Source of the DNA: Lentisphaeraceae bacterium
Lineage (GTDB): Bacteria > Verrucomicrobiota > Kiritimatiellia > RFP12 > DVOR01
Assembly (NCBI GenBank): GCA_004555175.1
Contig: SFJE01000004.1
Location: forward strand, 3,909-67,908
Direction of reading: 5' to 3'
DNA length: 64,000 nucleotides
Below, in pieces: positions 2,892 to 63,570 of the stretch. Every line of letters begins with the position of its first letter. The first letter of the stretch is position 1. The notes beneath the pieces were generated by a model. It searched no databases, had not been told where the DNA came from, and saw nothing but the letters and a program-made list of their open reading frames with translations. A program made the translations under genes and the position numbers.

Positions 2892-4639
<1,748 letters not shown>

Positions 4640-4640
<1 letters not shown>

Positions 4641-5134: not shown

Positions 5135-7048
5135 TCAGTCTTCTTGGTTGGGGGCCACTTCGTGCCAAGCGATGAGGCGCGGGCGGTCGATGGTCATCGG
5201 CAGGTAGATGGGGTTCTTGGCATTTTCAAGGCTTTCAGAGCCCAGGCGAATGTCCCAGTTGAAGTTGAAGCCAGTCCAGGTGGAACTGATTTGGTTGCGC
5301 GTGACATAGGCACCATTGATGGTGAGTCCATTACCTGTTTTCATTTGGTCGACGAGGTAACCTGACCCGCCGATGAAGGCGTGGTTGGTGAAGAGTACGC
5401 CGTCGATATGATCGATACGGTCGTTGGCGTAGTAGATATACTTGGACTCAACGCTCGGCTCATAGAACTTGCGGTCTGCCGCGACAATGGTGCGGTTGCC
5501 GTCGGCATCGACATCAATCTGCTCAATGCGCTTTTTCTGCCCGTTGTTTTCCACGCGGAAGTAGTCGCTATTAAAGTTCCCGCCGCCGGGATAACCATTC
5601 ATTGAGTCGGAGACATCCACCGGATATTCGGTGTAACCCTGTGCCTGTAAGAAGGCCTCAAGCATTACCGGGTTGCAGAAATCGGAGTTGGTATTATTCA
5701 CCGGCCCGGCGGTGATGAGGCCTTTGGCGCAGAAGCCAACGAGGTCGGCCTTGTCGCGATTATTAGCCGCGGTGGCGTTGGGGTCGTTCTTTGAGTTCGA
5801 CCAATCGGGGCGATTGACATAGGTGACATTGTCAATGAAGTGGATGTTGCGCCCGGCGTAAATGCACCCTTGGCCTTTGATGTAGCCGCCGATAACCACA
5901 TCACCTTCGATGACCACTGGACCATTGATGACGATGGGATTCTTCTTGGTGCCATACATCACCACACAGCCGGCATCTTGCGCATTGGAAATCCCAGAGG
6001 GGCCGGGATTGTCCTTGGAATAAACAGCGGAAATCGTTTGACGACTTGGATTGAGGGAGTAGTGTCCTGCGCCATCAACATAAAGCGGGTTGTAGGTGAG
6101 CGTGCCGTTTCCCTCGCGGGCGAGAGAACGGTAGGTTTCTAAGTCGCCAATATAGGGGAGTTCAAAGACGGCGGCGTGCTCGTTTCGGGTCACATCGGTG
6201 GTTTCAGGGCCAGCGGCGTAGCCCATTGGCCAGGGGGTTGTGTCGTCAGCCGGAGAGGTTGGGCGGCAAGTGGGCGTCTCGGACTGGCGTGCACGGTAGG
6301 CGGCCAAGGATTCGGATGTAGGCCACGGGGACGCCCAATAAGGGGTAATTGAGCCATCGCCACAGGCGGGCACATCTTGGTTACAGGCTGCTGTTACCGT
6401 GCCATTGATAATGCAGGCCATAAATGGGGCCCATCCAACATTGTTTCCCAGCGAGCAATCGCCATTGAAGTAGGCATTGCCGTTGAGCACGCCACTATAG
6501 AGCTGGCCGCCGTTGTTCACGAAGTAGGCGTAGTCAAAGACCTTGGATTGCTCCACGGACATGCGGAAGGTCTCTTCAATGGCCTTGGTGACCAACTTCC
6601 CCAGGGGCGAGCGCTTGGAGGCGGTGGTTCGAATGGTCATTGCAATGGTGCGTGCGGTGGTGTTAACACTATCAACCTGCGCTTCGTAGGAGATGGCGCA
6701 CCCGGCATTCGGGTCTAGTGTTCGATTGATTTCAATGAGGCTCCGGGCGTTGCTCTCCAGCCAGGTGAGGAGGACCATTGGCGTCTTGCTTCGGTCGGTG
6801 ACATAGTAGTTCCGGAAGCCCTCATAGATGGCGAGTTTGGCGTCTTCGAGGGCGGTTTGGGCGGCGAGGCGGCACTGGGTGGCGGTGATGCTTTCGGCGG
6901 TGAGGCGGGTGCCAAAGTCAACGTAGCTGGCGAGAGTGCCGACGAGCAGGGAGATAATGAGCAGGAAGAGGAGGGCGGTGGGGAAGACGAAGCCAGCGCG
7001 GCGGTTGGCGCGGGGGCGTGGAAGCGTTGGGTTCATAGCGTTCTCCAT
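5135..7048 (-). CDS. large minor-pilin-like protein with GspK/PilX-like N-terminal hydrophobic segment (637 aa)
   Basis: Likely start is MENAMNPT at 7048 or MNPT at 7036; upstream ORF sequence is P/S-rich out-of-context sequence. The N-terminus RRAGFVFPTALLFLLIISLLVGTL resembles the GspK/PilX N-terminal helix. The rest is N/G/T-rich and beta-rich. Lies 16 nt downstream of the pseudopilin gene. Confidence 0.6.
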   Translation of the reverse strand: MENAMNPTLPRPRANRRAGFVFPTALLFLLIISLLVGTLASYVDFGTRLTAESITATQCRLAAQTALEDAKLAIYEGFRNYYVTDRSKTPMVLLTWLESNARSLIEINRTLDPNAGCAISYEAQVDSVNTTARTIAMTIRTTASKRSPLGKLVTKAIEETFRMSVEQSKVFDYAYFVNNGGQLYSGVLNGNAYFNGDCSLGNNVGWAPFMACIINGTVTAACNQDVPACGDGSITPYWASPWPTSESLAAYRARQSETPTCRPTSPADDTTPWPMGYAAGPETTDVTRNEHAAVFELPYIGDLETYRSLAREGNGTLTYNPLYVDGAGHYSLNPSRQTISAVYSKDNPGPSGISNAQDAGCVVMYGTKKNPIVINGPVVIEGDVVIGGYIKGQGCIYAGRNIHFIDNVTYVNRPDWSNSKNDPNATAANNRDKADLVGFCAKGLITAGPVNNTNSDFCNPVMLEAFLQAQGYTEYPVDVSDSMNGYPGGGNFNSDYFRVENNGQKKRIEQIDVDADGNRTIVAADRKFYEPSVESKYIYYANDRIDHIDGVLFTNHAFIGGSGYLVDQMKTGNGLTINGAYVTRNQISSTWTGFNFNWDIRLGSESLENAKNPIYLPMTIDRPRLIAWHEVAPNQED

Positions 7049-7064
7049 CTTAGGGGGTGGGGAA

Positions 7065-7775
7065 TTACTTGAGGACCTTGCCAAAGCGAGGAACGGCCAA
7101 GCGCTGGGCTTGGGTATACTGGCCATTCTGCGAGGCCACTTGGAGGTCGATGTAAAGGGTGTCGAGATCGGTGTTCCACTGGAAGGCGGTGGTGTCGGCG
7201 GGGGAGACGACGAGGGGGGAGGGGGCGAGCCAGCGCCGGGCAAGGGCGGAATCCTCCTCGGCCTCGGAGTAGGTGAGGCCATTGGTGCCGCTCAGGGAGA
7301 GCGTCTCGGGCGAACTGATGGAGCCGACCTTATGGAAGGTGACGCGCCCGGCAATGACTTGGTCAATGACAACGCTGCAAAGACCTTCATTCTCGCCGGG
7401 GGTGAGGCGGAAGAGGAGCTTATCGCGCAAGTTTCGCAGGGCCACGGAGAGCTCGGTATTGGCAATAATGCTCGCCACGGCTCGCTGGCAGGAGAGGGTC
7501 ACGCTAATCACTTGCCCGAGAATGAGCACGCCGAGGGCGGAGACCATCGTCACCTCCAGGAGGGTCATGCCGGCCCGGCGGGAGAACGGCTTGGGGGTAG
7601 CCCCCTCGGGGCGGGGGTTTATCGACAGGTCTGGGGAGTTATCGACAGGCCCGCGCCGCTTTACATTTTTGTCCGCCCCTACCTCGGGTCGAGGTAGGCC
7701 CTGTCTCGGGTCGAGGTAGGCCCTCCCTCGAGTTGAGGTAGGCGCGGGTGCTTTTTTTGTCTTCTGCGTGGACAT
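7065..7775 (-). CDS. prepilin-type N-terminal cleavage/methylation domain protein (pseudopilin); start uncertain, apparent 69-aa leader
   Basis: Contains FSRRAG/MTLLEVTMVSALGVLILG, i.e. a class III signal with G-M-T-L-L-E. The only in-frame ATG upstream of the Gly is at 7775. The ATG at 7568 would delete the leader. Codons 15-35 are encoded by the CCTACCTCG/CGAGGTAGG palindromic repeats. Confidence 0.6.
   Translation of the reverse strand: MSTQKTKKAPAPTSTRGRAYLDPRQGLPRPEVGADKNVKRRGPVDNSPDLSINPRPEGATPKPFSRRAGMTLLEVTMVSALGVLILGQVISVTLSCQRAVASIIANTELSVALRNLRDKLLFRLTPGENEGLCSVVIDQVIAGRVTFHKVGSISSPETLSLSGTNGLTYSEAEEDSALARRWLAPSPLVVSPADTTAFQWNTDLDTLYIDLQVASQNGQYTQAQRLAVPRFGKVLK
7677..7746. repeat. 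palindromic repeat cluster (CCTACCTCGGGTCGAGGTAGG x2 plus variant), member of CCTACCTCGAGGTAGG family
   Basis: Perfect 9-bp inverted repeats cctacctcg/cgaggtagg occur twice, plus ccctcgagttgaggtagg. The same motif family is at 24378-24457 and 63215-63385. Confidence 0.8.
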
Positions 7776-7862
7776 CCAACGCTCCCATCTTTTTCGATCG
7801 TGTCTTTGTGCGCTTTGTGTTCTTTGTGGTAGCTCAATCCTGCGTGCGTTTCGGCACTCTCG

Positions 7863-8369
7863 TCAGTCGGTGAGGCGGGAGTTGTTGGTGCGCACGAGGC
7901 GGTAGGGGGAGCGCTCGCCGTTGGGGTCGGTGGGGTCGGCCTGCCAGAGGCTGCGCCACTTGCCGCCCACTTGCCAGTAGACATTGGCGAGGAGGGTGCA
8001 GTAGTTGCCCTCGCGGCGGATACGCAAGTAGCGGCGGATGGGGAGCTTACCATCGTGAGAGAGGGCGGGGAGATCGCGCCGGGCATCGGCCTCTGGAAGG
8101 GTGATGAGGATCTCGTCGGTGGGGGTGGCAGCGGGGAGGTGGTCGAAGGGGCGGTTGAACTGCTTCCAAAGGATGTCCCAGGCGTAGGCATCGGCTAGGA
8201 GGCGGCACTTGTTCTCCTCGGAGATCCGCCGATAGGTCATGATGCTATCGAGCATAAAGAGGGAGAGGAGGATGAGAACGGCCGAGGCGGCCGTAATCTC
8301 AATCAAGGTAAAGCCAGCCTTGGCGCGGCGGCGCGCGCGGCTTGGGAGGGCGTGGTGAAAGAAGAACAT
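7863..8369 (-). CDS. prepilin-type pseudopilin (GspG/GspH-like minor pilin)
   Basis: MFFFHHALPSRARRRAKAGFTLIEITAASAVLILLSLF is a canonical KAG|FTLIEI class III signal peptide. Start at 8369 follows a GGAG RBS; the upstream part of the track ORF is out-of-frame-looking R/P/S-rich sequence. Confidence 0.8.
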   Translation of the reverse strand: MFFFHHALPSRARRRAKAGFTLIEITAASAVLILLSLFMLDSIMTYRRISEENKCRLLADAYAWDILWKQFNRPFDHLPAATPTDEILITLPEADARRDLPALSHDGKLPIRRYLRIRREGNYCTLLANVYWQVGGKWRSLWQADPTDPNGERSPYRLVRTNNSRLTD

Positions 8370-8385
8370 AGGCGGGCTCCTGGGG

Positions 8386-9774
8386 TTACTCGGAGAGCTT
8401 GCGGTAGAGCGTGGCCACAGAGACCTGGAGGATATGCGCGGCCTCGGTCTTATCGCCATTGCAGCGGTCGAGGATTTGGCGGAGGTACTCGCGCTCCTTC
8501 TGGCGGAGGTAGCCCTTGAGCGACTCATCTGCCGGGGGCGTGGAGGCGGTGCCGGGGGCTTGCGCGCTGGGCGGTTGGATGACCGAGAGGGCGGCGGCCA
8601 ACTTTGAGGGCAGATGCGCGGGGAGGATGACTTCGCTCCCCTCGCGGAAGGCCAGCGCGTGGGTGATGACATTCTCTAGCTCGCGGACATTGCCCGGCCA
8701 GGTGTAGTGGGTGAGGATTTCGGCAGTGCCGTTGGAGAGGGCCGGGCGCGGGAGGCCCTTGGGCAGACCGGTATCGATGAAGTGCTTGGCTAGGGGCAGG
8801 ATGTCCTCCCGGCGCTGACGCAACGGCGGCAGGTTCACCGACACCACCGCCAAGCGGTAATAGAGGTCCGCCCGGAAGGTGCCGGCGGCCACCAGTTGCT
8901 CCAAGTCGGCATTGCTCGCGGCCACCAAGCGCACATTCACCGGGATGTCCTGCAAACCGCCCACGCGGCGGATTTCGCGCTCTTGGAGGCAACGCAGGAG
9001 CTTCCCTTGAAGGCTCAGGGGCATTGAGGAGATTTCATCAAGGAAGAGGGTGCCGCCGTTGGCCGCCTCCACCAAGCCCTTCTTATCGGCCGTGGCGCCG
9101 GTGAAGGCCCCCTTCATGTGGCCGAAGAGTTCGCTCTCCAAGAGCGGCTCGGGCAGGGCTGCGCAGTTGACGGCCACCCAGGGGCCCTTGGCGCGTGGAC
9201 CTAGGGCGTGGAGGGTGCGGGCCACGACCTCCTTACCGGTGCCGCTCTCGCCATTGATGAGGACGGTGATGTCGTGCGGCGCGACCTTGCGCAACGTCTC
9301 GCACACCGGCTGCATGGTGGGGGCGGTGGCAATCATCCCGCCCAGCGCGCTTGCCTCCGGGGTTGCCTCGGCTGCATCCAAAGCCTCGACCAACTGGATT
9401 TTGCGGCTTTGGGCTTGCCGATCGGCCGCGCGGATGGTGGCCATTAGCTCGTTGACCTTGAAGGGCTTGGTGATGTAATCAAAGATGCCCCCGCGCATGG
9501 CGTCCAACGCCGTCTCCAACGAGGCATAGGCCGTGAGCAGAATCACCGGCATCCCCGGGCGGCGCTTGCGGATCTCGGCAAAGAGCTCCAAGCCGTCCAT
9601 TCCTGGCATTCGCAGGTCGGTGAGGACGAAGTCGATCTCGGCGTGCTCATCGAGCGTCTGCAGGGCGCTCGGGCCATCTTTAGCCGGAAGCACATCAAAC
9701 TTGGCGCTCTTGAGTAGGCTCTCGAGCAACATCAAGATGCGGGCTTCGTCATCAACAATAAGAACAGTGGACAT
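8386..9774 (-). CDS. sigma-54-dependent response regulator (NtrC/PilR family: REC + AAA+ sigma-54 activator + Fis-type HTH)
   Basis: N-terminal REC domain (LIVDDE...TDLRMPGMDG). Central domain has Walker A GESGTGKE and the GAFTGA sigma-54 contact motif (ESELFGHMKGAFTGA). C-terminal HTH AAHILQVSVATLYRKL. Confidence 0.9.
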   Translation of the reverse strand: MSTVLIVDDEARILMLLESLLKSAKFDVLPAKDGPSALQTLDEHAEIDFVLTDLRMPGMDGLELFAEIRKRRPGMPVILLTAYASLETALDAMRGGIFDYITKPFKVNELMATIRAADRQAQSRKIQLVEALDAAEATPEASALGGMIATAPTMQPVCETLRKVAPHDITVLINGESGTGKEVVARTLHALGPRAKGPWVAVNCAALPEPLLESELFGHMKGAFTGATADKKGLVEAANGGTLFLDEISSMPLSLQGKLLRCLQEREIRRVGGLQDIPVNVRLVAASNADLEQLVAAGTFRADLYYRLAVVSVNLPPLRQRREDILPLAKHFIDTGLPKGLPRPALSNGTAEILTHYTWPGNVRELENVITHALAFREGSEVILPAHLPSKLAAALSVIQPPSAQAPGTASTPPADESLKGYLRQKEREYLRQILDRCNGDKTEAAHILQVSVATLYRKLSE

Positions 9775-9782
9775 AGCGCTCC

Positions 9783-12497
9783 TTACAGGTTAGAGGCGGG
9801 GGAAGTGGGTGTGGTGAGCAACGCTGCCAAGTGCGTGCGCAGGTCGGCCAACGTCCAGGGCTTGGGCAGAATGCCATCGGGCTTCAGCCCCTTGAAGAGA
9901 AAGTCGATATGCTCGCGCGAGAGGCCCGAGGTGATGACCAGCTTGAGGGCCGGCGCGCGCTCGCGCAGCTCGGCGCAGAGCGCCTGCGAGGTCTCCTGCC
10001 CTAGGTGCGCATCCACCAGCGCCACGGCAATCTCCGGGTGATGGTGAAGGGCCTCTAGCGCCTCGGTGGGGGTGGAGGCCACAAATACGGAGGCTTTGAA
10101 GAAGCGCTCAAGGAGGGTCTTGGAGGCGGTGCGGATGGCGCTGTCGTCATCCACCACCAGGCAGGAGAAGTGCTTGGGCGTGGAAACGCCTTCGGTCAGC
10201 GCTTGGAGGAGCGCCTCCGCGCGCTGGGGCGAGCAGGGCACGGTCGGCTCCTCCAACTGCGGCACCGGGACCTCTTCGCCGGCCGGCACCCAAATGCGGA
10301 AGGCGGTGCCGCGCCCGACAATCGAACGGAAGGCCAGGACACCGCCGTGCGCCTCCACCAATGCGCGGACAATCGCCATCCCTAAGCCGCGGTGGAGGCC
10401 CCCCTTGGTTGAGACGGCGGGCTCAAAGAGGTGTTCCTGTATCGCCTCGGGAATGCCCGGACCGTCATCTGAAAGCTCAAAGAGGACGCCGGGGCGATTG
10501 GCTGGCGTTTTATTCTGTTCGTTGCGGTCCACTTTGGGCCAGACCACGGCGCGCGTTGAATCAAGCTTGGCCAAGCTGCACGCCTTGGCGCGAATGTGGA
10601 TGGTGCCGCCGCCATGGGCGGCGAGGGCCTCGGAGGCGTTGCGGGTGATGTTCGAGAGGATGCGCCAGAAGTTCGTGGGATCCACCAAGACGGTGCACGT
10701 GCCGAGCGGAACGGGATCGATTTGCAGGCGGACGTTGGTGGGCAGGGCGTTGGCGTAGAAGGTTTCGAGGGCCATGAGGAGCGTGGCGGGGGATTCGCTC
10801 TTGCACTTGAGGTTGATGTTACCGGCTGAATCCATGAGGTCGCGAGCGAGGAGGGTGCCCTTGTTGCAGGCGTTGCGCAGGGAGTGGAGGGAGGCGCGGA
10901 CATCATCGGGCGACTCGGGGTTGATGGCCTCGACCACGCTCTGGATGACGGCAATGGTGTTGTTGATGTCATGCGCCATAAAGCGGGCGAAGTCGTTCAT
11001 CTGCGAGCGTTGACGGCTCTGGCGGAGCTGGACCTCGGCAAGGGTGCGGCGCTGAGCCTCGCGAACGCGGCGGGAGATGTCGGTGAAGATGACCAGAATG
11101 GTCTCGTTACCCAGTTTGGAGAAGCGCGCCTCGAAGTAACGCGGTGCTTCGCCGGGGGTGCGGCAGGAGAGGCGAATGACCGATGCTTCGCCGCGGGTGA
11201 GCACGGTGTTACAGGTTTCGCGGAAGAGTTTGCACCCGGCGCGGTCGAAGGCCTGCGTATCCAATCCGTGGCCTTCTGTTAGGCCGGGGATGGGCGGCAC
11301 GCCTTCGGGCTGCTTGCGCAGTTGCATCAAGGTGCCCTCGCGGTCAAAGACGCAGAGGCCATCGGGGATGTTGCGCAGGATCATGCGCTGGCTCCGTTCC
11401 ACCTGGCTGGCCCGTGCGCTCACTTGGCTCACGGAGAGGAGTAGACGGTTGATTTCATCGACCAAGCGCGAGAAGACCTCTCCGCGTGCCCAGGGAATGA
11501 AACTTGAAATGCCCGAAACGCTGTCGGCATGGATCTCTTGCAGGTGGTCGATGAGATGGCGGATGGGGCGGAAGATGCCAATGTGCATCAGCGTCGCGTT
11601 CAGGAGCAGGAAGAGGAACATTCCGGCAGCGGCAATCAGCGGTAGGGCCAAGCGCAGACGCGCGGCCAGCACTGGCATCCCGGCGGGCAAACGCAGCGTA
11701 TAGCGCGCCACGGGCAGTCCAGTCATGTCGAAGAGCGGGAAAATCGCCTCGAAGCACGCCGTCCCCAGCCCGTAGGTGCCGAAGAAGTCATTCTCGCGTG
11801 TGCCACGAAGGATGGACGCCGGCGTCTGCGCGTGACCGATGGCGGTGAGGCGTTCGCTCGGGAAGACCTCAAAGAAGCCGACGGTCGATCCCTCGGGCAG
11901 GTGGACGGTGAGCGAACCCAGCTCGCGCCCTAGGACAATATAGGCGTTAGGCCAGAGTTGGCCCTCAAAGACAAGCGGGATGGTGGCCACGAAGAAGGGC
12001 GTGCCGCGCAGGATGAGAATACCCAGCGGCAGCGTGGGCGGGGTGATGGCGTTGGCAAAGGTGTTGTAAAAGAGGGGTTGATAGCGGTGGAGTTCGGTGC
12101 CGGCGGCCTTGGAGACGAGCCCGCCCTCCTGCTGCAGGTAGGCTTCATGAATTTTACCGCCGCCGATAACATAGACGGCCAAGGGGTAGGGCGAGCCATC
12201 GGCGCTGCGGTGGAAGAGATCCAAGTGTCGCTCAAAGTCGATATAGCCGAGCTCTTGGAAACGGTTAACGATGCGCTCGCCATCGGCCATAATCTCAGCG
12301 CGCAGGGCCTCAAATGCGCCTGTCAACGCTTCGGCCTGCGTTAGGGCCACAGTTTTAGGGCGTTCAATTGCGCGTTTAATCGCCCAGTCCACCCCAACGT
12401 AGATGCCCACACAGAGCGCCAGCGCGCTCCCCCAAAAGAGGAGGCGCAACAGCAGGTGCCGCGGCAGGGAGAGGTGCGAAAACAGGCGCATAGGCAT
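9783..12497 (-). CDS. hybrid sensor histidine kinase (TM sensor region, HAMP/PAS, HisKA, HATPase_c, C-terminal REC)
   Basis: 904 aa. Two hydrophobic segments, H-box FMAHDINNTIAVI, G-boxes LSDDGPGIPE and GLGMAIV, and a C-terminal receiver CLVVDDDSAIR...ALVDAHLG. Confidence 0.85.
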   Translation of the reverse strand: MPMRLFSHLSLPRHLLLRLLFWGSALALCVGIYVGVDWAIKRAIERPKTVALTQAEALTGAFEALRAEIMADGERIVNRFQELGYIDFERHLDLFHRSADGSPYPLAVYVIGGGKIHEAYLQQEGGLVSKAAGTELHRYQPLFYNTFANAITPPTLPLGILILRGTPFFVATIPLVFEGQLWPNAYIVLGRELGSLTVHLPEGSTVGFFEVFPSERLTAIGHAQTPASILRGTRENDFFGTYGLGTACFEAIFPLFDMTGLPVARYTLRLPAGMPVLAARLRLALPLIAAAGMFLFLLLNATLMHIGIFRPIRHLIDHLQEIHADSVSGISSFIPWARGEVFSRLVDEINRLLLSVSQVSARASQVERSQRMILRNIPDGLCVFDREGTLMQLRKQPEGVPPIPGLTEGHGLDTQAFDRAGCKLFRETCNTVLTRGEASVIRLSCRTPGEAPRYFEARFSKLGNETILVIFTDISRRVREAQRRTLAEVQLRQSRQRSQMNDFARFMAHDINNTIAVIQSVVEAINPESPDDVRASLHSLRNACNKGTLLARDLMDSAGNINLKCKSESPATLLMALETFYANALPTNVRLQIDPVPLGTCTVLVDPTNFWRILSNITRNASEALAAHGGGTIHIRAKACSLAKLDSTRAVVWPKVDRNEQNKTPANRPGVLFELSDDGPGIPEAIQEHLFEPAVSTKGGLHRGLGMAIVRALVEAHGGVLAFRSIVGRGTAFRIWVPAGEEVPVPQLEEPTVPCSPQRAEALLQALTEGVSTPKHFSCLVVDDDSAIRTASKTLLERFFKASVFVASTPTEALEALHHHPEIAVALVDAHLGQETSQALCAELRERAPALKLVITSGLSREHIDFLFKGLKPDGILPKPWTLADLRTHLAALLTTPTSPASNL

Positions 12498-19701: not shown

Positions 19702-22212
19702 TTACTTCCTTGCCGAGGTGGGCGAGAGGCGCACGCCAAAGACCTTGTAGGTCTTGCCGCCGTGGACGTTGCGGAAGGGGGCCGAGGTGATGAGCCCATT
19801 GCGGTAGGGCGTGCCCGGCGGGATTTCGGCCAAGACGGCCCACTGCGGGGCGCTGGCATCGGGCTTGGCGAGGATTTGGATGTAGCCATTGGGCGCGGCA
19901 CCGAGCGTGCCCATGCCATCGAAGGGCTCGACCATCACCGTGGCCTCAATGCGGTTATTACCCACGCGCCGCACCTCAGCCACGCCGAAGTTGCAGAGAT
20001 ACTGGGCCGAGATGGCTCCCCCAATCAGCGAAGCCTGCGGCCGCAGATTAAGCAGATAGGCCACATTGACCGCCTGTCCGGCATCCATCTCCGGCGTTTC
20101 GGAGGTGGAGCCCTCGAGGGTCAGGCGCAAATCGCCAGCGGCGGAGCGCCCGCGCAAGGCGGCGGCCGTTACGAAGCTGAGTGCTTCGGGGCTCGGCTTG
20201 ACGGTGGCCTCGGAGCCATCGGGGTTGAGGAGCTTGATGTTGAGGTTGCCCATCGCCACGGCATAGGGCACATTGAGCGAGAGGGTGTTGCCCTCCAGCA
20301 CCAGCTCGCAGCCCTCGGGAATATCAGAGCCCATTAAGAAGTCATCGTCCGAGAGGGTGTCCGAGCAGACCTGCCAGGTGAGGATGGGGTTCTTGCCGCC
20401 CTTCATCCCGGTGGGATTGCCGGTAATAATGAGGCTCGAGCCGTGCTGCATTGCCAAGAGCGAGAGGCTTGTCACCTTCCCCGGGGCAATCTCCAACTGT
20501 GCGCCATCCAAGAAGATGCAGCTGCCAGTCACCTTCCCGCCGCCGGCGAGCGTGCCGCCCTTGGCCACAATCAGGTTGCCCGTGCTGCGGATGGTCTGGG
20601 CCTTCAACACCGCATCGCCCTCAATCTGGAGCGACTGCAGCGGCGCAATCGTCAGCTCTTGGGCCTGATGGAGACCATTGGTCAGGCGCACCGGCGCCTG
20701 CACCGTGAAGTTCCGGGAGAAGCTGCCGCCGCTCATCTCCACATTGCCGCCATTGACCAGCAGATCTAGCGGCTTGTTTGGAGAACCCAGCGTGGCGTCC
20801 ACCTTTAGCCCCGAGAGGTGCGGCACCACCCACTTCGTCTGCCCGGTGGGGTCAGCCGTCCGCCCGAGGGTGAGCAAGGGGGCCTCCTGCTGGGTCCAGA
20901 TGCGCCCAGCCACCGTGCCAGTGGCGGCCAGCGTGGTGGGACCGGTCATCTCGATGGCGCTCTCGAGCGTGGCACCAGACTCAATGCGCAGGGCGCCAAA
21001 GCCCTCGCGGTTCAGCTCGCCGCCGCCACTTACGCCAATTTGCGGCGCATCAAAGGCGCCCTGGCCCACCACATAGAGCTGCACGCCCGGGGAGAGAACC
21101 AGCCGCGCCTCGGGGCCGAGCAAAAGCCCGTTGCTGCGTAGCTTCTTCCCGGCGCCTTGGCGCGTGGCATCATCCACCACCACCACCTCGCCCTCAAAGG
21201 TCTGCGCGTTGAGCGTGACCGTAAGGTCAGAGAAGGGGCAGCTAATCTCGATGCGCCCGTGGCCATCAATGGTCAGCGGCTTGGGGTTCCCTGCCTGCGC
21301 CGGCTGAATCCGCAAGGTGCCGCCCTTGAGCGTATGCTGCCACTCCGGGAGCGGCCCCTGCTTGGGCGCCAAGACGCACGAGCCATCAGGAGCGGCTGCC
21401 GGGAGCTCTACGGAAGGCTTTGCCTTCGCCGGTTCGGCCTCCCGCTCGGCCACAGTGGCCTTCACCACCGGCTTGCCTGCCGGCGGGGTTGCGGAAGTTC
21501 CAGACCAGGCGCAGACCTCATCCAGCCGCTCGTAGAGCCCCGGTTTGACGCCCGAGGCTGCGCCGTCACCGTCGCGCCCCGTACCGAGCACCAATTCTGT
21601 CAGCCTGTCATCGGGTCCGTGCTCGGCCGGGACCTTAAGCCGCTCGACTTCGGTGCCGTCAACAAACAGCACGAAGCTCTCATCCATGTAACAAAGGCGA
21701 ATATCGTACCACTGCTCGAGCTCGAGCTTGTTCTTCTCGTGCCAACGGGTCATCCCCTGCACGAGGTTCTGGCCGGCGTTGCGAAAGAGGGCCATCGTGA
21801 TGGGGTTGTTGCTCTTGGGCTCGGCCACCTGCTCGAGGCGGTAGTTGTGCTTGCCAAAGCGAAACCCAAGGATTGGGCGCCAACGCATCCGGCTGCGCGG
21901 CCGCAGACGGAAGGCAATCGTCCACCCCTCCTTCGCCCGCAGCCCTTCAATGCCACTAACCACCCCATAGCGCGTTCCCTGCGCGTTGGAAAAGACCTCT
22001 AGCGCGCTCACCCCCAGTTCATCCATCGAAGGCTTGACCGCCTTCCCCGCCTGCGGACCTTGCAGGACGAAGCTGAGCTTCGGCTTGCCAGACTCCGAGA
22101 CCACCTGATCCACTGCCCCTGGATTGAATGAACATCGCACAGCCACTTCGGCCGGCAGCAACCCTGCCAGCCCCACGGCCAACGCTAAGAAAATCTGTTG
22201 GTCAATCTGCAT
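19702..22212 (-). CDS. large secreted protein (836 aa) with N-terminal LamG/concanavalin-like region and Gly/Thr-rich beta-helix-like repeats; first gene of the pilM-secretin operon
   Basis: Signal peptide MQIDQQIFLALAVGLAGLLPAEVA. A WTIAFRLRP...LCYMDESFVLFVDGTEVERL LamG-like block. Long G/T/L-rich repeats (GGTLAGGGKVTGS). Ends 5 nt before the PilM-like start. Confidence 0.6.
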   Translation of the reverse strand: MQIDQQIFLALAVGLAGLLPAEVAVRCSFNPGAVDQVVSESGKPKLSFVLQGPQAGKAVKPSMDELGVSALEVFSNAQGTRYGVVSGIEGLRAKEGWTIAFRLRPRSRMRWRPILGFRFGKHNYRLEQVAEPKSNNPITMALFRNAGQNLVQGMTRWHEKNKLELEQWYDIRLCYMDESFVLFVDGTEVERLKVPAEHGPDDRLTELVLGTGRDGDGAASGVKPGLYERLDEVCAWSGTSATPPAGKPVVKATVAEREAEPAKAKPSVELPAAAPDGSCVLAPKQGPLPEWQHTLKGGTLRIQPAQAGNPKPLTIDGHGRIEISCPFSDLTVTLNAQTFEGEVVVVDDATRQGAGKKLRSNGLLLGPEARLVLSPGVQLYVVGQGAFDAPQIGVSGGGELNREGFGALRIESGATLESAIEMTGPTTLAATGTVAGRIWTQQEAPLLTLGRTADPTGQTKWVVPHLSGLKVDATLGSPNKPLDLLVNGGNVEMSGGSFSRNFTVQAPVRLTNGLHQAQELTIAPLQSLQIEGDAVLKAQTIRSTGNLIVAKGGTLAGGGKVTGSCIFLDGAQLEIAPGKVTSLSLLAMQHGSSLIITGNPTGMKGGKNPILTWQVCSDTLSDDDFLMGSDIPEGCELVLEGNTLSLNVPYAVAMGNLNIKLLNPDGSEATVKPSPEALSFVTAAALRGRSAAGDLRLTLEGSTSETPEMDAGQAVNVAYLLNLRPQASLIGGAISAQYLCNFGVAEVRRVGNNRIEATVMVEPFDGMGTLGAAPNGYIQILAKPDASAPQWAVLAEIPPGTPYRNGLITSAPFRNVHGGKTYKVFGVRLSPTSARK

Positions 22213-22236: not shown

Positions 22237-22252
22237 TGCAAACTTCGTGCCA
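22237..22252 (-). promoter_or_regulatory. sigma-54 (RpoN) promoter, -24/-12 elements TGGCACG-aagt-TTGCA, upstream of the 19702-22212 operon
   Basis: Reverse complement of 22231-22260 reads gcgcggtTTGGCACGAAGTTTGCAtagaaa, an exact match to consensus TGGCACG-N4-TTGCW. An AGGAG RBS and ATG at 22212 lie ~20 nt downstream. Confidence 0.8.
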
Positions 22253-22261
22253 AACCGCGCA

Positions 22262-22416
22262 CCTACGGTGCTTGGTTAGCGGACAGCCGACAGCGGACAG
22301 CTGACAGCGCTGGCGCTCGATGTGCAAAACCCGTCTGAGCCGTGAGCGCAACACGATAGGCCGGCGGTTTGTCCGTCGCGTTAGCGGCTGTCCGCTGTCG
22401 GCTGTCCGCTGTCCGC
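22262..22416. repeat. ~150-bp composite element: 4x CNGACAG heptamers, conserved core, 4x CTGTCNG heptamers (inverted); copy A
   Basis: Left arm cggacagccgacagcggacagctgacag (22280-22307). Right arm ctgtccgctgtcggctgtccgctgtccg (22388-22415). Core blocks cagcgctggcgctcga, cccgtctgagccgtga and tccgtcgcgttagcggctgtc are shared with copy B at 31861-32000. Confidence 0.8.
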
Positions 22417-23237
22417 TAGAGGTTAAAAAGGCTATCCTCAAAGCCGCCGTCGTCGGAGGGGGTGGCGGGGGGATCGGCGGTGGGCTCGAGGGCGTGGGCC
22501 ACCGCTTCGCTCAGCCCATCGATGGGGGCGATGGGGGAATCTTGCTCAAAGAGCGAGACAATCTCATCGGCGTGGTTGGCCGTCTTGCGATACTGCTCGG
22601 TGGCGTAGTGGCGCTTCTCGTTGAGCTTTTGGAGGAGATCGCGGATTTCGATGGCCGCCTCGTAGCACATCTCGGTCATCTCCTTGCGCCCGGCCTCGTC
22701 CACCAGATTTAGGCGCATCATCTCCACGCTACTCATCAGCACGGTCATCGGCTGACCAATCGCATGGCAGATGGTGCCAAAGCTCTCCATCATCACGCGC
22801 TGACGCTCCCGCTCGCGCTCCAGGCGCACATCCTGCCACATTGCCGCCGCATCGCGCAAGACAATGACCGCCCAGCGTGGCGGCTGCCCCTGCGCGCCCA
22901 TCTCTTTGGGGGTGGCATTGACTTCCAGCGTCACCTTGGGCTGGGTGAGCTCGGCGGGTTTGGGCGCCTGCCACAACTTCCCGGCGCGCAAGGCTTCCAT
23001 CATCGGCGCAATCCACGCCGGGTTTGGGAACCAGCGCGTGAGCGGCGCCCCCACCGGCAGGCCCCCCTCTGGCTGCGGAAAGAGTTCGCGCCAGACGCTA
23101 TTGGCGTAGAGCAATGGCCCCTCCGGGCTCGTTAATTCGATTACGCAGACGGCCACATTTGCGCGTTCAAGCCCCACATCGAGCATCTCATAGTAGGTTG
23201 CCGGCGGCTTGGGCCGGTCAAATCCAAAGGACATCAT
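22416..23237 (-). CDS. PAS-like + HisKA-like domain protein lacking an HATPase_c domain
   Basis: 273 aa. RERERQRVMMESFGTICHAIGQPMTVLMSSVEMMRL resembles a histidine-kinase H-box dimerisation domain. No N/G1/G2 ATP-binding boxes follow; the C-terminus is an acidic tail. Confidence 0.5.
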   Translation of the reverse strand: MMSFGFDRPKPPATYYEMLDVGLERANVAVCVIELTSPEGPLLYANSVWRELFPQPEGGLPVGAPLTRWFPNPAWIAPMMEALRAGKLWQAPKPAELTQPKVTLEVNATPKEMGAQGQPPRWAVIVLRDAAAMWQDVRLERERERQRVMMESFGTICHAIGQPMTVLMSSVEMMRLNLVDEAGRKEMTEMCYEAAIEIRDLLQKLNEKRHYATEQYRKTANHADEIVSLFEQDSPIAPIDGLSEAVAHALEPTADPPATPSDDGGFEDSLFNL

Positions 23238-23799: not shown

Positions 23800-24156
23800 T
23801 TAGTTGGTCGCATCTTCAGGGAGGACGTGGCCCTTCGGACATGAGGTCTTATAGCGGCCGGTGCCATCATCGGCTGGCATCGTATAGGAGCTGTTAGCGT
23901 CAGACGGGCATCTCATCTTGCTGATGGAGATCTTAAGATACTGATTCAGGTGGGTAGCGTCCACGGCTTCCCCATTAATCAAGCACTGCTCAGCAGCGGC
24001 TTCAATCTGCTTCATATTGGCAATGCAGGCGTTCTTCTGGGAGGTCTGCCTAGAGCGGACGAAGTTCGGGACGGCGATGGCGGCGAGGATGCCGATGATC
24101 GCGACCACGATCATAATTTCAACGAGCGTGAAGCCCTGCTTCAACTGCTTATTCAT
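23800..24156 (-). CDS. type IVa major pilin (PilA-like; prepilin with short leader and C-terminal disulfide loop)
   Basis: True start MNKQLKQ|GFTLVEIMIVVAIIGILAAIAVPNF is a classic class III signal with a 7-aa leader. Mature length ~111 aa. Two C-terminal Cys (CPSDANSSYTMPADDGTGRYKTSCP). The ORF in the track extends upstream to 24342 through out-of-context sequence. Confidence 0.85.
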   Translation of the reverse strand: MNKQLKQGFTLVEIMIVVAIIGILAAIAVPNFVRSRQTSQKNACIANMKQIEAAAEQCLINGEAVDATHLNQYLKISISKMRCPSDANSSYTMPADDGTGRYKTSCPKGHVLPEDATN

Positions 24157-24230: not shown

Positions 24231-24246
24231 TGCAATGGGCGTGCCA
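24231..24246 (-). promoter_or_regulatory. sigma-54 promoter TGGCACG-ccca-TTGCA driving the pilin gene
   Basis: Reverse complement of 24226-24250 reads gatTTGGCACGCCCATTGCAaaggag. An AT-rich tract (24250-24350, candidate IHF bend) and palindromic repeats (24378-24457) lie upstream, as in enhancer-dependent promoters. Confidence 0.8.
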
Positions 24247-24377
24247 AATCAGGAAGGGCGGGAACTTTTTTGCGCTTCGCTCAAAAGCAGTCTCCCGATT
24301 TCTCATTCCTGTAAAGAGGTTTCTTAGTTTTAAGAATGGCAATTCTCGGGAATGAGAAAAATCCCTTCTCGAAATGG

Positions 24378-24457
24378 CCCAGGGCCTACCCCACCTCGAG
24401 GTAGGGCCTGGGTCACCTTGAGGTAGGGCCTACCCCGCCTCGAGGTAGGGCCTGGGG
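24378..24457. repeat. nested palindromes of the CCTACCTCGAGGTAGG family (candidate UAS / REP-like element)
   Basis: cccagggcctaccccacctcgaggtagggcctggg forms a ~16-bp stem. It is followed by ttgaggtagggcctaccccgcctcgaggtagggcctggg. Confidence 0.8.
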
Positions 24458-24464
24458 GAGGGGG

Positions 24465-24654
24465 GGAAGGGCGCGGCCATTGAAGTGGCCGGGGGTTTTG
24501 AGCCAGGCGCTCGCTTCGCTCGCTGCGCGGCAAATATGCCGCGCCACGGAACCGTTAACGGCAGGAGGAGGGCTGGCCTTTCGGTAAGGGGCTTCCGAGC
24601 CGGGCGGGCGGAGGCCAGGGCGCGGCCATTGGAGCGGCCGGGGGGCTTGAGCCA
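24465..24654. repeat. ~40-bp direct repeat pair (gggcgcggccattgRagYggccggggg..ttgagcca) in G-rich non-coding region
   Basis: Copies at 24465-24505 and 24615-24654 in an ~870-bp stretch with no credible ORF. Track ORFs there are P/R/A-rich frame artefacts. Confidence 0.6.
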
Positions 24655-31837: not shown

Positions 31838-31860
31838 CGGGAGTCCTTTGGGGAGTGAAT

Positions 31861-32000
31861 AGCTGACAGCGGACAGCGGACAGTTACCAGCGCTGGCGCT
31901 CGAGGAGGAAGCCCCGTCTGAGCCGTGAAAACATTCTCATTGGGCCATCAACCTTTCCGTCGCGTTAGCGGCTGTCATCTGTCATCTGTTATCTGTCATC
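31861..32000. repeat. composite heptamer-array element, copy B (CNGACAG x3, conserved core, CTGTNAT x4)
   Basis: ctgacagcggacagcggacag at 31863-31883. Core cagcgctggcgctcga, ccccgtctgagccgtga and tccgtcgcgttagcggctgtc. Right arm ctgtcatctgtcatctgttatctgtcatc at 31972-31999. Homologous to 22262-22416. Confidence 0.8.
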
Positions 32001-32003
32001 TCT

Positions 32004-34196: not shown

Positions 34197-34297
34197 GCTC
34201 ACTCTCCGTTCTCTGCAATTCACCCCCGCACGGGGACTTGCACCAAAGTATAGCACACTCTGTTGTCTGTCGCTGAGAGAGAAGAGGACGGATGACG

Positions 34298-34382
34298 GAA
34301 GATCCGGAAGCTCCGGAAAGCCCGGAAGCTCCGGAAAATCCGGGAAATCCCGGAAAGCCCGGAAAACCCGGGAAAGCCCGGC
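34298..34382. repeat. tandem repeat, ~9 units of CCGGAAA(G/A)C-like 9-11-mers, in the divergent speA / C10-peptidase intergenic region
   Basis: atccggaagctccggaaagcccggaagctccggaaaatccgggaaatcccggaaagcccggaaaacccgggaaagcccgg. A related tccggaatctccgggaatctccggatgatccgg occurs at 63181-63213. Confidence 0.8.
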
Positions 34383-45404: not shown

Positions 45405-45470
45405 GCGCAACTAATAAGACCCCGTCTTATTGGCAACAAGACCCCGTCTTATTGGCAACAAGGCGGGGCC
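45405..45470. other. three consecutive short hairpins (taagaccccgtctta x2, aaggcggggcctt) downstream of recO; candidate terminator cluster
   Basis: Direct repeat aagaccccgtcttattggcaaca x2, then aaggcggggccttatt. Each is a 5-6-bp stem with a ccc/ggg loop followed by a T-rich tract. Confidence 0.4.
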
Positions 45471-62111: not shown

Positions 62112-62713
62112 CGCGCCCTCACCAGGGTGAGCGTGATTCGCTCGCCCGTCGCTTCTGGCGCATCGCCAATGAAGACTGCCTCGGGGGGCACCCCCACCGC
62201 CTCGGCGATGTAGGTGCTCAGCAGGGCGCGGTGGCCGAGCCGTTCGGGCACGGAGAAGAAGCGCGTCGAGATGAGCACCCGCTCGGTCCGGCCGCGATAG
62301 GCCTCCAGCGCCTTGAGTTCTTCAGTCCGCGGAATCCCCTCCCAGGTCACTTGCCAATCGCCCTTGCGCTCGGCCAGCAGGAAGCCGACCACCATCCCCG
62401 CCGCCAAAAAGAGCGGCACAAGCAGGAGGCAAAGCGCCTTCCAGGGCATCACAAAGGCCGTCTTGCCCAACGCCTTCAAGGCCTTGCGCGAGGGCGCGTG
62501 CTCGGGGTGGATGAGTTGAATCTCCTGCCAGAGCCGCCGCGCTTCCCCTTCGTCCCCCTGCTCGGCCCGAATACGCGCCAAGAGGTCCATCGCCTCGGTC
62601 GTCTTCGAGAGCTCGCCATCGGAGAGAATAAGCGCCTCTGCCTCGCCATAATGACCCGCGCGCGCGAGCGTATAGGCGCACAAGAGCGCCACCTTCGTCT
62701 GATTGCTACTCAT
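62108..62713 (-). CDS. hypothetical membrane protein with TPR-like N-terminal domain
   Basis: Start MSSNQTKVALLCAY at ~62713; upstream is R-rich out-of-context sequence. One TM (ALCLLLVPLFLAAGMVVGFLLA). Confidence 0.45.
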   Translation of the reverse strand: MSSNQTKVALLCAYTLARAGHYGEAEALILSDGELSKTTEAMDLLARIRAEQGDEGEARRLWQEIQLIHPEHAPSRKALKALGKTAFVMPWKALCLLLVPLFLAAGMVVGFLLAERKGDWQVTWEGIPRTEELKALEAYRGRTERVLISTRFFSVPERLGHRALLSTYIAEAVGVPPEAVFIGDAPEATGERITLTLVRAR

Positions 62714-63080
62714 GCTCGCTCCCTTCCGCGTTCGCCGCCGGCAGGACCGGCTGGGGCACCAAAATCCCCCGCTTGGAGAGCAGGGTCTCAATCTCCTTGA
62801 GCGCCTCCATCGTCCCCTCGTGCGCACCATCGCAGAGCGTCTGGTAAATCTTGCCCATCGCCTGGCCCACCCGCGCCCAATCGGCCTTCTCGGCCTCGAC
62901 CCGCGCCGCGGTCAACTCCCACTGCCGCGCCATCTCCAGCTCCAGCTCGGCAAACTGCTCAGAGACGCGCACCAACCCCTCGGTGTCGCACCCTGCCACA
63001 CCCACCTCTTCGCGAACCGCCACGCGCCGCTGCTGCCGAACAACCATAGAGCCAAACTCCTCTCTCAAGAACATCCGCAT
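62706..63080 (-). CDS. hypothetical small protein (124 aa)
   Basis: Clean ORF whose stop overlaps the downstream start. No motif recognised. Confidence 0.35.
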   Translation of the reverse strand: MRMFLREEFGSMVVRQQRRVAVREEVGVAGCDTEGLVRVSEQFAELELEMARQWELTAARVEAEKADWARVGQAMGKIYQTLCDGAHEGTMEALKEIETLLSKRGILVPQPVLPAANAEGSEHE

Positions 63081-63214
63081 TATGCCACACTTCCCGCAAA
63101 AAAGCGAGCGTAGCGAGCATCTCGCGCAAGGTGCTCGCTATCGCGGGGGGTCTTGCCCCCTGCCCCCCATTGGCGGGCCGCCTCCGGAATCTCCGGGAAT
63201 CTCCGGATGATCCG

Positions 63215-63385
63215 GCCTAGCGCGCATCGGCCTAGGCCCTACCTCGAGTTGACCTAGGGCCTACCTCGAGGTGATCTAGGGCCGACCTCGCCTTGACCTA
63301 GGCCCTACCTCGCCTCGGCCTAGGGCCTACCTCACATCGACCTAGGGCCTGCCTCGAGTCGAGCTAGGCCCTATCGCGAGCGCAG
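63215..63385. repeat. tandem array of ~7 degenerate 21-23-bp units (CCTAGGGCCTACCTCGAGGTGA-like), flanked by ~25-bp direct repeats
   Basis: Units: gcctaggccctacctcgagttga, cctagggcctacctcgaggtgat, ctagggccgacctcgccttga, cctaggccctacctcgcctcgg, cctagggcctacctcacatcga, cctagggcctgcctcgagtcgag, ctaggccctatcgcgagcg. Flanks: agcgagcatctcgcgcaaggtgctc (63112-63137) and agcgagcatctcgcagttgcaaaagtgctc (63449-63478). Confidence 0.8.
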
Positions 63386-63570
63386 CGAGCCTCTCACGGC
63401 CCGCAGGGCCACCCTCACGCCGTGAAGCGGCACCTCACGCGAACGACAGCGAGCATCTCGCAGTTGCAAAAGTGCTCCGCCTTTTGATATAGTGCGCGCG
63501 CTTTCGGCGTTTTGGCCGAGCTTTTGGCGGGCGGATGAGCCTGCATTTCCCCTTGTTTTATTGGTTTAAG

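Follow-up and report, generated by a model that had tools for sequence, protein, structure and literature searches.

GTAG-tagged repetitive extragenic palindromes (REPs) are units of 20-40 bp with an unpaired GTAG tag, which occur mostly as single copies or as head-head and tail-tail dimers and only rarely head to tail (Di Nocera et al. 2013, PMC3733652). They are mainly found downstream of open reading frames (ORFs), in unidirectional and convergent gaps, and are present in the Planctomycetes-Verrucomicrobia-Chlamydiae superphylum, for example in Opitutus terrae (PMC3733652). Some of them are intragenic and encode 20-82 aa, and the N-terminal cases may be extragenic (PMC3733652). The 64,000-nucleotide stretch of Lentisphaeraceae DNA analysed here (contig SFJE01000004.1, positions 3,909 to 67,908, assembly GCA_004555175.1), referred to below as the window, contains three tandem arrays of a short palindrome-type repeat, and one of them lies inside the 5' end of a pseudopilin-like gene (7065..7775, minus strand). 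The best overall explanation, which we hold to be probable, is that a copy of a non-coding dispersed repeat is read through as a disposable prepilin leader.

Three arrays with a 22-bp period were located in the window with Tandem Repeats Finder, namely array 1 at 7677-7743 (3.0 units, 86% matches), array 2 at 24381-24453 (3.3 units) and array 3 at 63214-63373 (7.3 units), and a separate repeat search of the window grouped them as a single family. Moreover, the half-site CGAGGTAGG, with at most one mismatch, occurs 39 times in the window against 14.2 +/- 3.9 times in shuffled sequences, the surplus being concentrated at the three array loci. A first-pass annotation of this DNA had described a palindromic repeat at three places, with a seven-unit tandem array at the third, and these results bear it out. 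The perfect palindrome that it took for the unit did not stand: the 16-mer CCTACCTCGAGGTAGG has no exact occurrence in the window, and its best copies carry 1-3 mismatches and are not at locus 1. Array statistics, here and below, come from the window together with 0.75 Mb of loci from metagenome-assembled genomes (MAGs) chosen for carrying arrays, in which Tandem Repeats Finder located 118 arrays of 2.0-7.3 units each, 357 units in all. Perfect palindromes (FR type) are a minority of about 14% of these units, and 66% have a CC/CC mismatch inside the arms.

At locus 1 the unit is made of a 9-nt arm, a 3-nt loop, a second 9-nt arm and 1 nt, giving 22 bp. On the gene strand (minus) the three units are CCTACCTCAACTCGAGGGAGGG (7742-7721), CCTACCTCGACCCGAGACAGGG (7720-7699) and CCTACCTCGACCCGAGGTAGGG (7698-7677), which in frame encode PTSTRGRAYLDPRQGLPRPEVG; the translation RGRAYLDPRQGLPRPEVGA given earlier for these repeats is indeed found on the ORF 7065-7775(-). 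This ORF of 236 aa starts with MSTQKTKKAPAPTSTRGRAYLDPRQGLPRPEVGADK...FSRRAG and continues with MTLLEV, that is, 69 codons of leader stand before the predicted cleavage site G|MTLLEV and a mature part of 167 aa follows. The array is situated, as had been proposed, in the sole ATG-initiated frame, with no in-frame ATG, GTG or TTG between codons 1 and 70. A non-ATG start downstream, which would leave the repeats outside the protein, is not found either, there being no GTG or TTG start between -69 and +1. Translation of the gene through the array appears quite likely, and we infer that ATG 7775 is used, that the leader is cleaved and that the insert is neutral.

The ATG at 7775-7773 is preceded, at a distance of 6 nt, by the Shine-Dalgarno (SD)-like GGGAG (7786-7782), and this combination (7773..7786, minus strand), the proposed start of the 69-aa leader, is conserved between two otherwise unrelated upstream haplotypes. 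SD-like cores are present at 51% of predicted gene starts compared with 14% of control positions, and no SD was seen upstream of ATG 7568, the codon for the Met of MTLLEV. At the other end of the leader, the codons for FSRRAG before the predicted cleavage site G|M (7569..7586, minus strand) show only synonymous variation among strains. All six variable sites in these codons (64-69) are synonymous (P ~0.001), and across orthologues the arginine at -3 is encoded by CGG, CGC, CGT and CGA. In our reading, selection acts here only to keep the frame open and to preserve the cleavage-site residues, as would be expected of a leader that is removed.

The canonical unit carries one TAG on the CCTACC strand and, since 22 is 1 modulo 3, three canonical units would close all three frames. 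In array 1 only the unit in which the TAG would be in frame is altered, to GACAGG, and a CAG codon of unit 2 (7701..7703, minus strand) occupies the site where the canonical unit (GGTAGG/CCTAGG) puts the stop. Among about 350 internal junctions the form GACAGG-S-CCTACCTC was found only in copies lying within an ORF, at locus 1 and its orthologues and at locus L099 of the MAG EHIM02. Frames across arrays are open in 24 of 708 cases, and only at locus 1 and L099 do they continue into strongly coding sequence.

In L099 (465-2243, minus strand) the array is in frame within a 592-aa membrane protein, which belongs to a conserved, unannotated family of 490-610 aa unrelated to the pseudopilin. Alignment with 10 homologues shows that the insert (about 46 aa; ...KKVGPTSGRPRAYLEARQGLPRGDLGPTS...; ...PTSGRPRAYLEARQGLPRGDLGPTS...) lies within a variable loop that has conserved blocks on either side. 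The insert is carried only by L099 and P0008, which are 90-91% identical, and is absent from P0009-P0034, so the family can enter coding sequence and stay there. The array has the same strand, a cyclically equivalent frame and the same GAGACAGG change as locus 1, a variant that occurs nowhere else among the internal junctions. The C-terminal tails of some members of this membrane-protein family run into heptamer repeats (..SCQLSAVRYPC..).

The long leader is not shared by relatives of the pseudopilin-like gene that are free of the array, whose leaders have 29-32 aa. Thus L001 from the MAG MAHA01, 85% identical in its mature part, is free of the array, and its leader of 32 aa stands behind a GAGGAG SD. 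In L003 (62% identical) the leader has 29 aa and starts 2 nt after the upstream gene, and it must be translated because residue +1 is Ile (ATC). In the sister lineage (L005 and L006) heptamer arrays, (CTGTCGA/CTGTCAT)n, stand in place of the array with the frame open and differ between the two strains, and L006 has an ATG at -43. These (CTGTCGA)n(CTGTCAT)n arrays occupy positions 1-30 of L005 and 85-140 of L006, upstream of the pseudopilin. The window-type lineage is represented by seven complete and two partial sequences (window, L004, L007, L008, L030, L112, L113, L114, L115), which diverge by up to 17%. In all nine the leader is without frameshift, indel or stop; three units and 69 leader codons are present in each of the seven complete sequences, and the frame of the two partial ones is open where covered. 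A HMMER search with the 69-aa leader against 1.84 billion representatives found only its own orthologue and two unrelated repetitive proteins, which makes the leader lineage-specific, and a word-indexed search with an alignment of the array-encoded peptides as query gave no scored hits.

In the opa genes of Neisseria, CTCTT repeats in the leader region are responsible for phase variation, and the present case is alike in that a tandem repeat with a unit that is not a multiple of three lies in the coding region of a removable leader. A comparable switch, with gain and loss of units by slipped-strand mispairing toggling translation of the pseudopilin, would fit a unit length of 1 modulo 3 and exactly three units (66 nt) holding the frame. 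It would also fit the range of 2-7.3 units and the internal homogenisation of the family arrays, which mean that slippage or unequal exchange occurs, and the sister-lineage heptamers (7 is also 1 modulo 3) at the same place. We nevertheless regard such a switch as very improbable. Unlike the opa repeats, the units here are long, few and imperfect, and three imperfect 22-bp units slip far less than classical short repeats. Among the strain sequences examined the number of units did not vary, the complete sequences all keeping three and the partial ones showing no departure where covered. Moreover, a disrupted frame was seen in no member of the cluster, and for the entries of 167 and 160 aa with DNA that was read (L030, L112-L115) the shorter length reflects the choice made in annotation, over an open leader frame.

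Several observations weigh against a translated leader. Outside its last six codons, substitutions in the leader are distributed almost evenly by codon position ([20,15,25], compared with [28,12,84] in the mature part), and the open frame upstream of the array has a codon-usage score of -25.5. Genes were called on codon usage, with training on database-called genes and with start trimming (GC3-based and long-ORF-trained callers were discarded as unreliable), and this caller left out all 69 leader codons. Most of the leader looks non-coding by composition, as expected for a young unconstrained leader and equally for a 5' untranslated region (UTR), and its survival without a stop under neutrality is only mildly improbable (P ~0.3-0.4). 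The RNA of locus 1 is predicted to fold into stacked hairpins of very high stability (-113 kcal/mol over 311 nt, z = -3.0), which could impede ribosomes, and the C modules found at the ends of some arrays, mostly turned towards gene 5' ends, might contain a promoter, in which case ATG 7775 would lie outside the transcript. A leader of 69 aa exceeds, to our knowledge, all described prepilin leaders (about 5-30 aa). The NCBI Prokaryotic Genome Annotation Pipeline (PGAP) annotates 167 aa from MTLLEV, and other callers 160 aa. In addition, Pfam and NCBIfam (PF07963, TIGR02532) gave no hit on the gene at E 0.01 or 0.1, and a Foldseek search against the PDB, made with an AlphaFold model of mean predicted local distance difference test (pLDDT) 63, gave no hit with E < 0.01.

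Much of this would be explained if the array were purely 5' UTR or intergenic, with the start at ATG 7568 or at the GGAGG-preceded ATG seven codons on, and with the open frame as a by-product of GC-rich sequence. The shorter public annotations concern identical DNA, arrays of the family are otherwise almost always non-coding and upstream of genes, and many REPs at the N-termini of ORFs are probably extragenic (Di Nocera et al. 2013, PMC3733652). However, untranslated sequence would not be expected to change only synonymously in the six codons before ATG 7568, with four synonymous codons at R(-3), and L003 cannot start at its Ile codon. The missing SD before 7568 and the specific removal of the in-frame TAG also speak against it, and a protein starting at M77 would lack the invariant TL-EV motif. 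We therefore consider an untranslated array unlikely and prefer a leader translated from ATG 7775.

The annotated start varies among the database entries, P0067, P0068, P0081 and P0083 having 167 aa and P0071 and P0084 having 160 aa. The PGAP entry P0083 of 167 aa is on contig L030, which holds the complete 236-aa ORF, and the 69-codon leader frame is open in the DNA behind P0088 (167 aa) and P0084 (160 aa). The 160-aa calls start at an internal ATG behind a GGAGG that is formed by the Leu-Glu-Val codons. In practice the length annotated for this gene depends on the pipeline (236, 167 or 160 aa), and the evidence from comparison speaks for the longest form.

The distribution of the repeat was assessed in one genome per species with a pattern matching all three window loci. 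At least 103 stretches matched, almost all in two Candidatus Spyradenecus MAGs; among the matches listed, about 95 were in EHIM02_bin.006, 6 in MAHA01_bin.015 and 1 in a 'Kiritimatiellae' MAG. Two scans of JGI metagenomes, with a locus-specific flank and with the family core pair, gave zero matches. With more than 100 array-bearing blocks in related MAGs, the family is a lineage-specific dispersed repeat of Candidatus Spyradenecus-like Lentisphaerota.

The unit consensus (n=357) is CCTACCTC-RMNKY-GA(CC 65% / GG 30%)TAGG-S. Across unit junctions this gives a conserved near-palindromic core of 17 bp, GAssTAGG-S-CCTAssTC, which can also be written GA(CC/GG)TAGG-S-CCTACCTC, and a variable spacer of 5 bp. 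The central base of the core is G or C almost equally (52%/45%), cores are 22 bp apart centre to centre, and ACCT recurs every 11 bp on the same strand in most units. The right arm at locus 3 is CGACCTAGG (CCTAGG), the form that is canonical genome-wide, where locus 1 has CGAGGTAGG (GGTAGG). An A at unit position 9 co-occurs with a C at position 13 (spacers ACCTC, ATTTC, AAATC), and this uncompensated loop-closing pair argues against selection for a perfect hairpin. Many arrays have an inverted terminal unit, producing long hairpins of the REPIN type. Identity with CRISPR, in which unique spacers of about 25-50 bp separate the repeats, was ruled out, since the spacers here have 5 bp and come from a small repertoire. 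A search for a dedicated transposase of the family, a weak test made by tblastn on the 0.75 Mb of loci with an approximate query resembling the REP-associated tyrosine transposase (RAYT), gave no hit with E < 0.4.

The family is similar to REPs and bacterial interspersed mosaic elements (BIMEs) (PMC3733652; REPIN/RAYT, PMC3337134) in its short GC-rich hairpin units with GTAG/CTAG, its high copy number, of the order of hundreds per genome, and its lineage-specific, mostly intergenic occurrence. Like them it is clustered, forms mosaics with other conserved motifs and has occasional in-ORF copies, and its terminal inverted units are REPIN-like. However, GTAG/CTAG is here inside the paired arm (CGAGGTAGG / CGACCTAGG) and the consensus has no unpaired tag, whereas in REPs the tag is unpaired. 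The units as a rule follow one another head to tail, 2-7.3 per array and with a period of exactly 22 bp, and in two thirds of them the arms are mismatched at the central CC/CC. Finally, divergent gaps and positions upstream of gene 5' ends are favoured (33/47 divergent, against 3/33 convergent), in contrast to the unidirectional and convergent 3' positions of REPs. Of the REP/BIME-like character attributed to the repeat in the first-pass annotation, the dispersed, hairpin-capable, mosaic and intergenic nature was retained, and the REP tag, the dimer layout and the 3' position were not found. The family is REP/BIME-like and is not a member of the REPs, from which tag, arrangement and position all separate it. 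As a repeat family of an uncultured gut Lentisphaerota lineage it had not been described before; its layout departs from the REP paradigm, and it breaks MAG assemblies at many sites.

As an in-frame palindromic insert, array 1 is also comparable to the Rickettsia palindromic elements and to the intragenic REPs of O. terrae, R. conorii and Thauera, which are carried as 20-80 extra residues, often at the N-terminus or in variable loops (PMC3733652). It differs from these in being an array of 22-bp units that would close all frames unless one TAG is mutated, and in-frame cases are few, only 2 independent ones among 118 arrays. Moreover, in one of these two cases the host sequence is a prepilin leader that can be cleaved off, and this gives a specific ground for tolerating the insert.

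Almost all arrays (115/118) are outside called genes. An array is held by 33 of the 47 divergent gaps, by 3 of the 33 convergent ones and by 40 of the 449 co-directional ones (Fisher P = 5e-8 for divergent versus convergent), and relative to the flanking genes there is no strand bias (22 co-oriented, 20 anti-oriented). Three end modules, Z, B and C, recur at the arrays in varied combinations. The Z module is an alternating-CG tract of 50-60 nt, TCGCGCGCGTAsGCGCGTGCGCG...TATGGTAGG, present in 46 copies in the 0.75 Mb; a longer reading is TCGCGCGCGTAsGCGCGTGCGCGTGCGCGCG...TTTCTATGGTAGG, with examples in L110, L025, L048 and L092. It lies between the array and a gene 5' end in 56 of the 64 array-flank cases classed Z, and in 40/44 of the Z junctions with a called gene. 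Extended -10 promoters (TGnTAnnnT) are found about 40 nt past the module, which could form Z-DNA, and the window has a degenerate Z copy at 63370-63382. The B module is CCTACCTTTTTTAGGGTATCG and the C module GGGGCGGAYAAAAATGTAAA. The latter, a conserved terminal module of the family, flanks locus 1 as GCGGACAAAAATGTAAA (7660..7676, minus strand) and also flanks 14 arrays in the MAG loci, the neighbouring gene pointing away from the array in 11 of the 13 with a called gene. This highly non-random placement of arrays and alternating-CG modules upstream of promoters is worth attention.

Such a placement could suggest that the arrays are protein-binding sites, either upstream activating sequences (UAS) for the sigma-54 activator encoded nearby at 8386-9774, which would control the pilin and pseudopilin genes, or 17-bp operators of a global DNA-binding protein. 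The near-palindromic core, its spacing by two helical turns and its near-equal central G/C are compatible with this. Array 2 (24381..24453), which is intergenic, was rightly placed by the first-pass annotation upstream of the sigma-54 promoter that serves the pilin gene 23800-24156(-), as a perfect -24/-12 element, TGGCACGCCCATTGC (24232-24246, minus strand), is found 135 nt downstream of it. Only array 2 lies where a UAS would be expected, at 80-200 bp upstream of such an element. We nevertheless regard a binding-site function as doubtful. Strict sigma-54 promoters number 8 in the 0.75 Mb, and 4 of them have an array 35-135 nt upstream, which is about the base rate for promoter regions in loci selected for arrays. 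No sigma-54 promoter stands at 114/118 arrays, nor is there one after array 1 or array 3. A general role of the arrays as sigma-54 UAS was rejected because of this base rate. A regulon was rejected as well, since the Z modules are followed by a mixture of unrelated genes with housekeeping roles (cysS, pgm, malic enzyme, hydF, hom). Furthermore, no candidate binding protein was found, and close species can differ in the presence of an array at an orthologous promoter whose core stays the same.

Array 3, with 7.3 canonical CCTACC...CCTAGG units (63214..63373), occupies the divergent gap between 62706-63074(-) and coaE (63535+), upstream of the promoter TTGCAA-18-TGaTATAGT at 63464-63493. Around array 1, a scan of 7000-8500 found no sigma-70-like promoter and no intrinsic terminator, so the array is no obvious terminator between the two pseudopilin genes. 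At gathering thresholds Rfam gave nothing at the arrays, the sole hits in the window being 3 tRNAs.

A further possibility, distinctly unlikely in our view, is that cruciform-prone arrays together with Z-DNA-capable CG tracts would form a promoter-upstream sink or insulator for negative supercoils between divergent units. This would explain the palindromic lattice, the alternating-CG module and the preference for divergent (70%) over convergent (9%) gaps. BIMEs, which characteristically bind integration host factor, DNA gyrase or Pol I, would be its mirror image, being located at 3' ends and recruiting gyrase. The copy in the pseudopilin leader would then be such a module swallowed by a coding region.

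The arrays are subject to turnover. The arrays upstream of cysS in two species are orthologous, and both have kept the C module, three units and the Z module. Their cores do not differ, the spacers all do, and within each array the spacers are homogenised, a pattern that indicates concerted evolution by unit turnover, although invariant cores with changing spacers would also suit binding sites. At other sites two genomes differ, one having an array at a promoter and the other none at its orthologue, the core promoter being unchanged, and these sites coincide with synteny breaks.

Returning to the read-through of array 1 as a prepilin leader, the events can be proposed as follows. Head-to-tail arrays of 2-7 units with conserved end modules would reside in promoter-bearing intergenic DNA, turn over quickly by unit duplication and loss in concerted evolution, and undergo gain and loss even among close species. 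A single copy, together with its C module, would have come to occupy the space between two pseudopilin genes and be read through by the downstream gene, with translation running from the SD-preceded ATG 7775 through the three units (66 nt, in frame) to the prepilin-type site RRAG|MTLLEV. The insert may be tolerated on account of the nature of a prepilin leader, which is cytoplasmic and hydrophilic and is cut off by prepilin peptidase, and selection would then be limited to the open frame and the last few leader residues. The locus would thus be a natural example of selfish or neutral repeats entering coding sequence, with a cleavable prepilin leader as the apparent permissive landing site for an extension to about 69 residues.

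The protein has features of class III (type IV prepilin) signal peptides, with a basic leader ending in RRAG, a hydrophobic residue, Glu at +5 and a hydrophobic helix. Thus G(-1), the hydrophobic +1 residue, E(+5), about 20 hydrophobic residues and the basic leader are all present (RRAG|MTLLEVTMVSALGVLILGQV), and T71, L72, E74 and V75 are invariant in the orthologue alignment. Described pilins have leaders of about 5-30 aa. In contrast, the leader here has 69 aa, those of its relatives have 29-43 aa, and the +1 residue is Met or Ile and not Phe. Pilin profiles of Pfam and NCBIfam match the neighbouring gene 7863-8369 weakly and the pilin 23800-24156 clearly. In the AlphaFold model residues 1-70 are disordered and are followed by a 53-residue helix and then by beta strands, a predicted secondary-structure layout that is pilin-like. 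The name 'pseudopilin-like' seems reasonable for this product, though not certified.

The nearest named protein is from Candidatus Spyradenecus sp. (Lentisphaerota) MAGs, and the window DNA is 85-93% identical to two Spyradenecus MAGs. The gene is part of a cluster entirely on the minus strand which resembles a type II secretion or type IV pilus operon. As in pilin and type II secretion pseudopilin genes, the operon includes T2SSE (2892-4640), T2SSF (1782-2867) and other proteins of the G|FTLIE kind, and the orthologous cluster in MAGs additionally has a secretin. The other members are a hybrid histidine kinase (9783-12491), the sigma-54 activator (8386-9774), a G|FTLIE pseudopilin (7863-8369) and a 637-aa protein with an RRAG|F N-terminus (5135-7048).

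Inside the leader ORF there are two copies of CTGTCGATAA, 20 nt apart (7619..7648, minus strand), which read as the DnaA-box-like TTATCGACA on the other strand. The same CTGTCGATAA is also found in 3-4 tandem copies near arrays, in the left flanks of the MAG loci L020 and L106. An 11-bp inverted repeat, TTTCTCATTCC ... GGAATGAGAAA (24300-24365), surrounds an AT-rich stretch in the interval from array 2 to the pilin sigma-54 promoter and is a better candidate than array 2 for an activator or integration host factor site. Array 2 is also accompanied by a local repeat, GGGCGCGGCCATTGRAGYGGCCGGGGG..TTGAGCCA, at 24450-24505 and 24599-24654 in the window and in 3 copies in L054 (1-260). In EHIM02 the GGGCGCGGCCATTGRAGYGGCCGGGGG..TTGAGCCA block is upstream of rpmH, in place of the pilin gene.

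Other short repeats are frequent in the same DNA. Unrelated hairpin repeats with the same 22-bp period (AAGACCCCGTCTTATTGGCAAC; TAAGTCCCCCACTTATCGGCAA; ATTAAGAGGGCCTCTTAATTCA) often adjoin the CCTACC arrays, and such repeats occur at 45416-45462 of the window, at L053 967-1048, L096 3039-3123 and L104 3629-3711, and in many MAG loci. A tandem array of CTCCGGGAAT (x2.6, 63182-63206) directly adjoins array 3, and one of CGGAAAATC (x8.8, 34296-34381) is in a divergent gap. The long intergenic regions of this genome are largely made of such short repeats. A heptamer-arm element has two copies in the window (22262-22417 and 31845-32001), with a core of about 70 nt, GCGCTGGCGCTCGA..CCCGTCTGAGCCGTGA, that is 80% identical between them and with arms that are inverted heptamer arrays (AGCGGAC/AGCCGAC... 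versus GCTGTCC/CTGTCAT...). The copy at 22262-22417 is just upstream of a perfect sigma-54 promoter, 22238-22252(-), which precedes the 836-aa gene 19702-22212.

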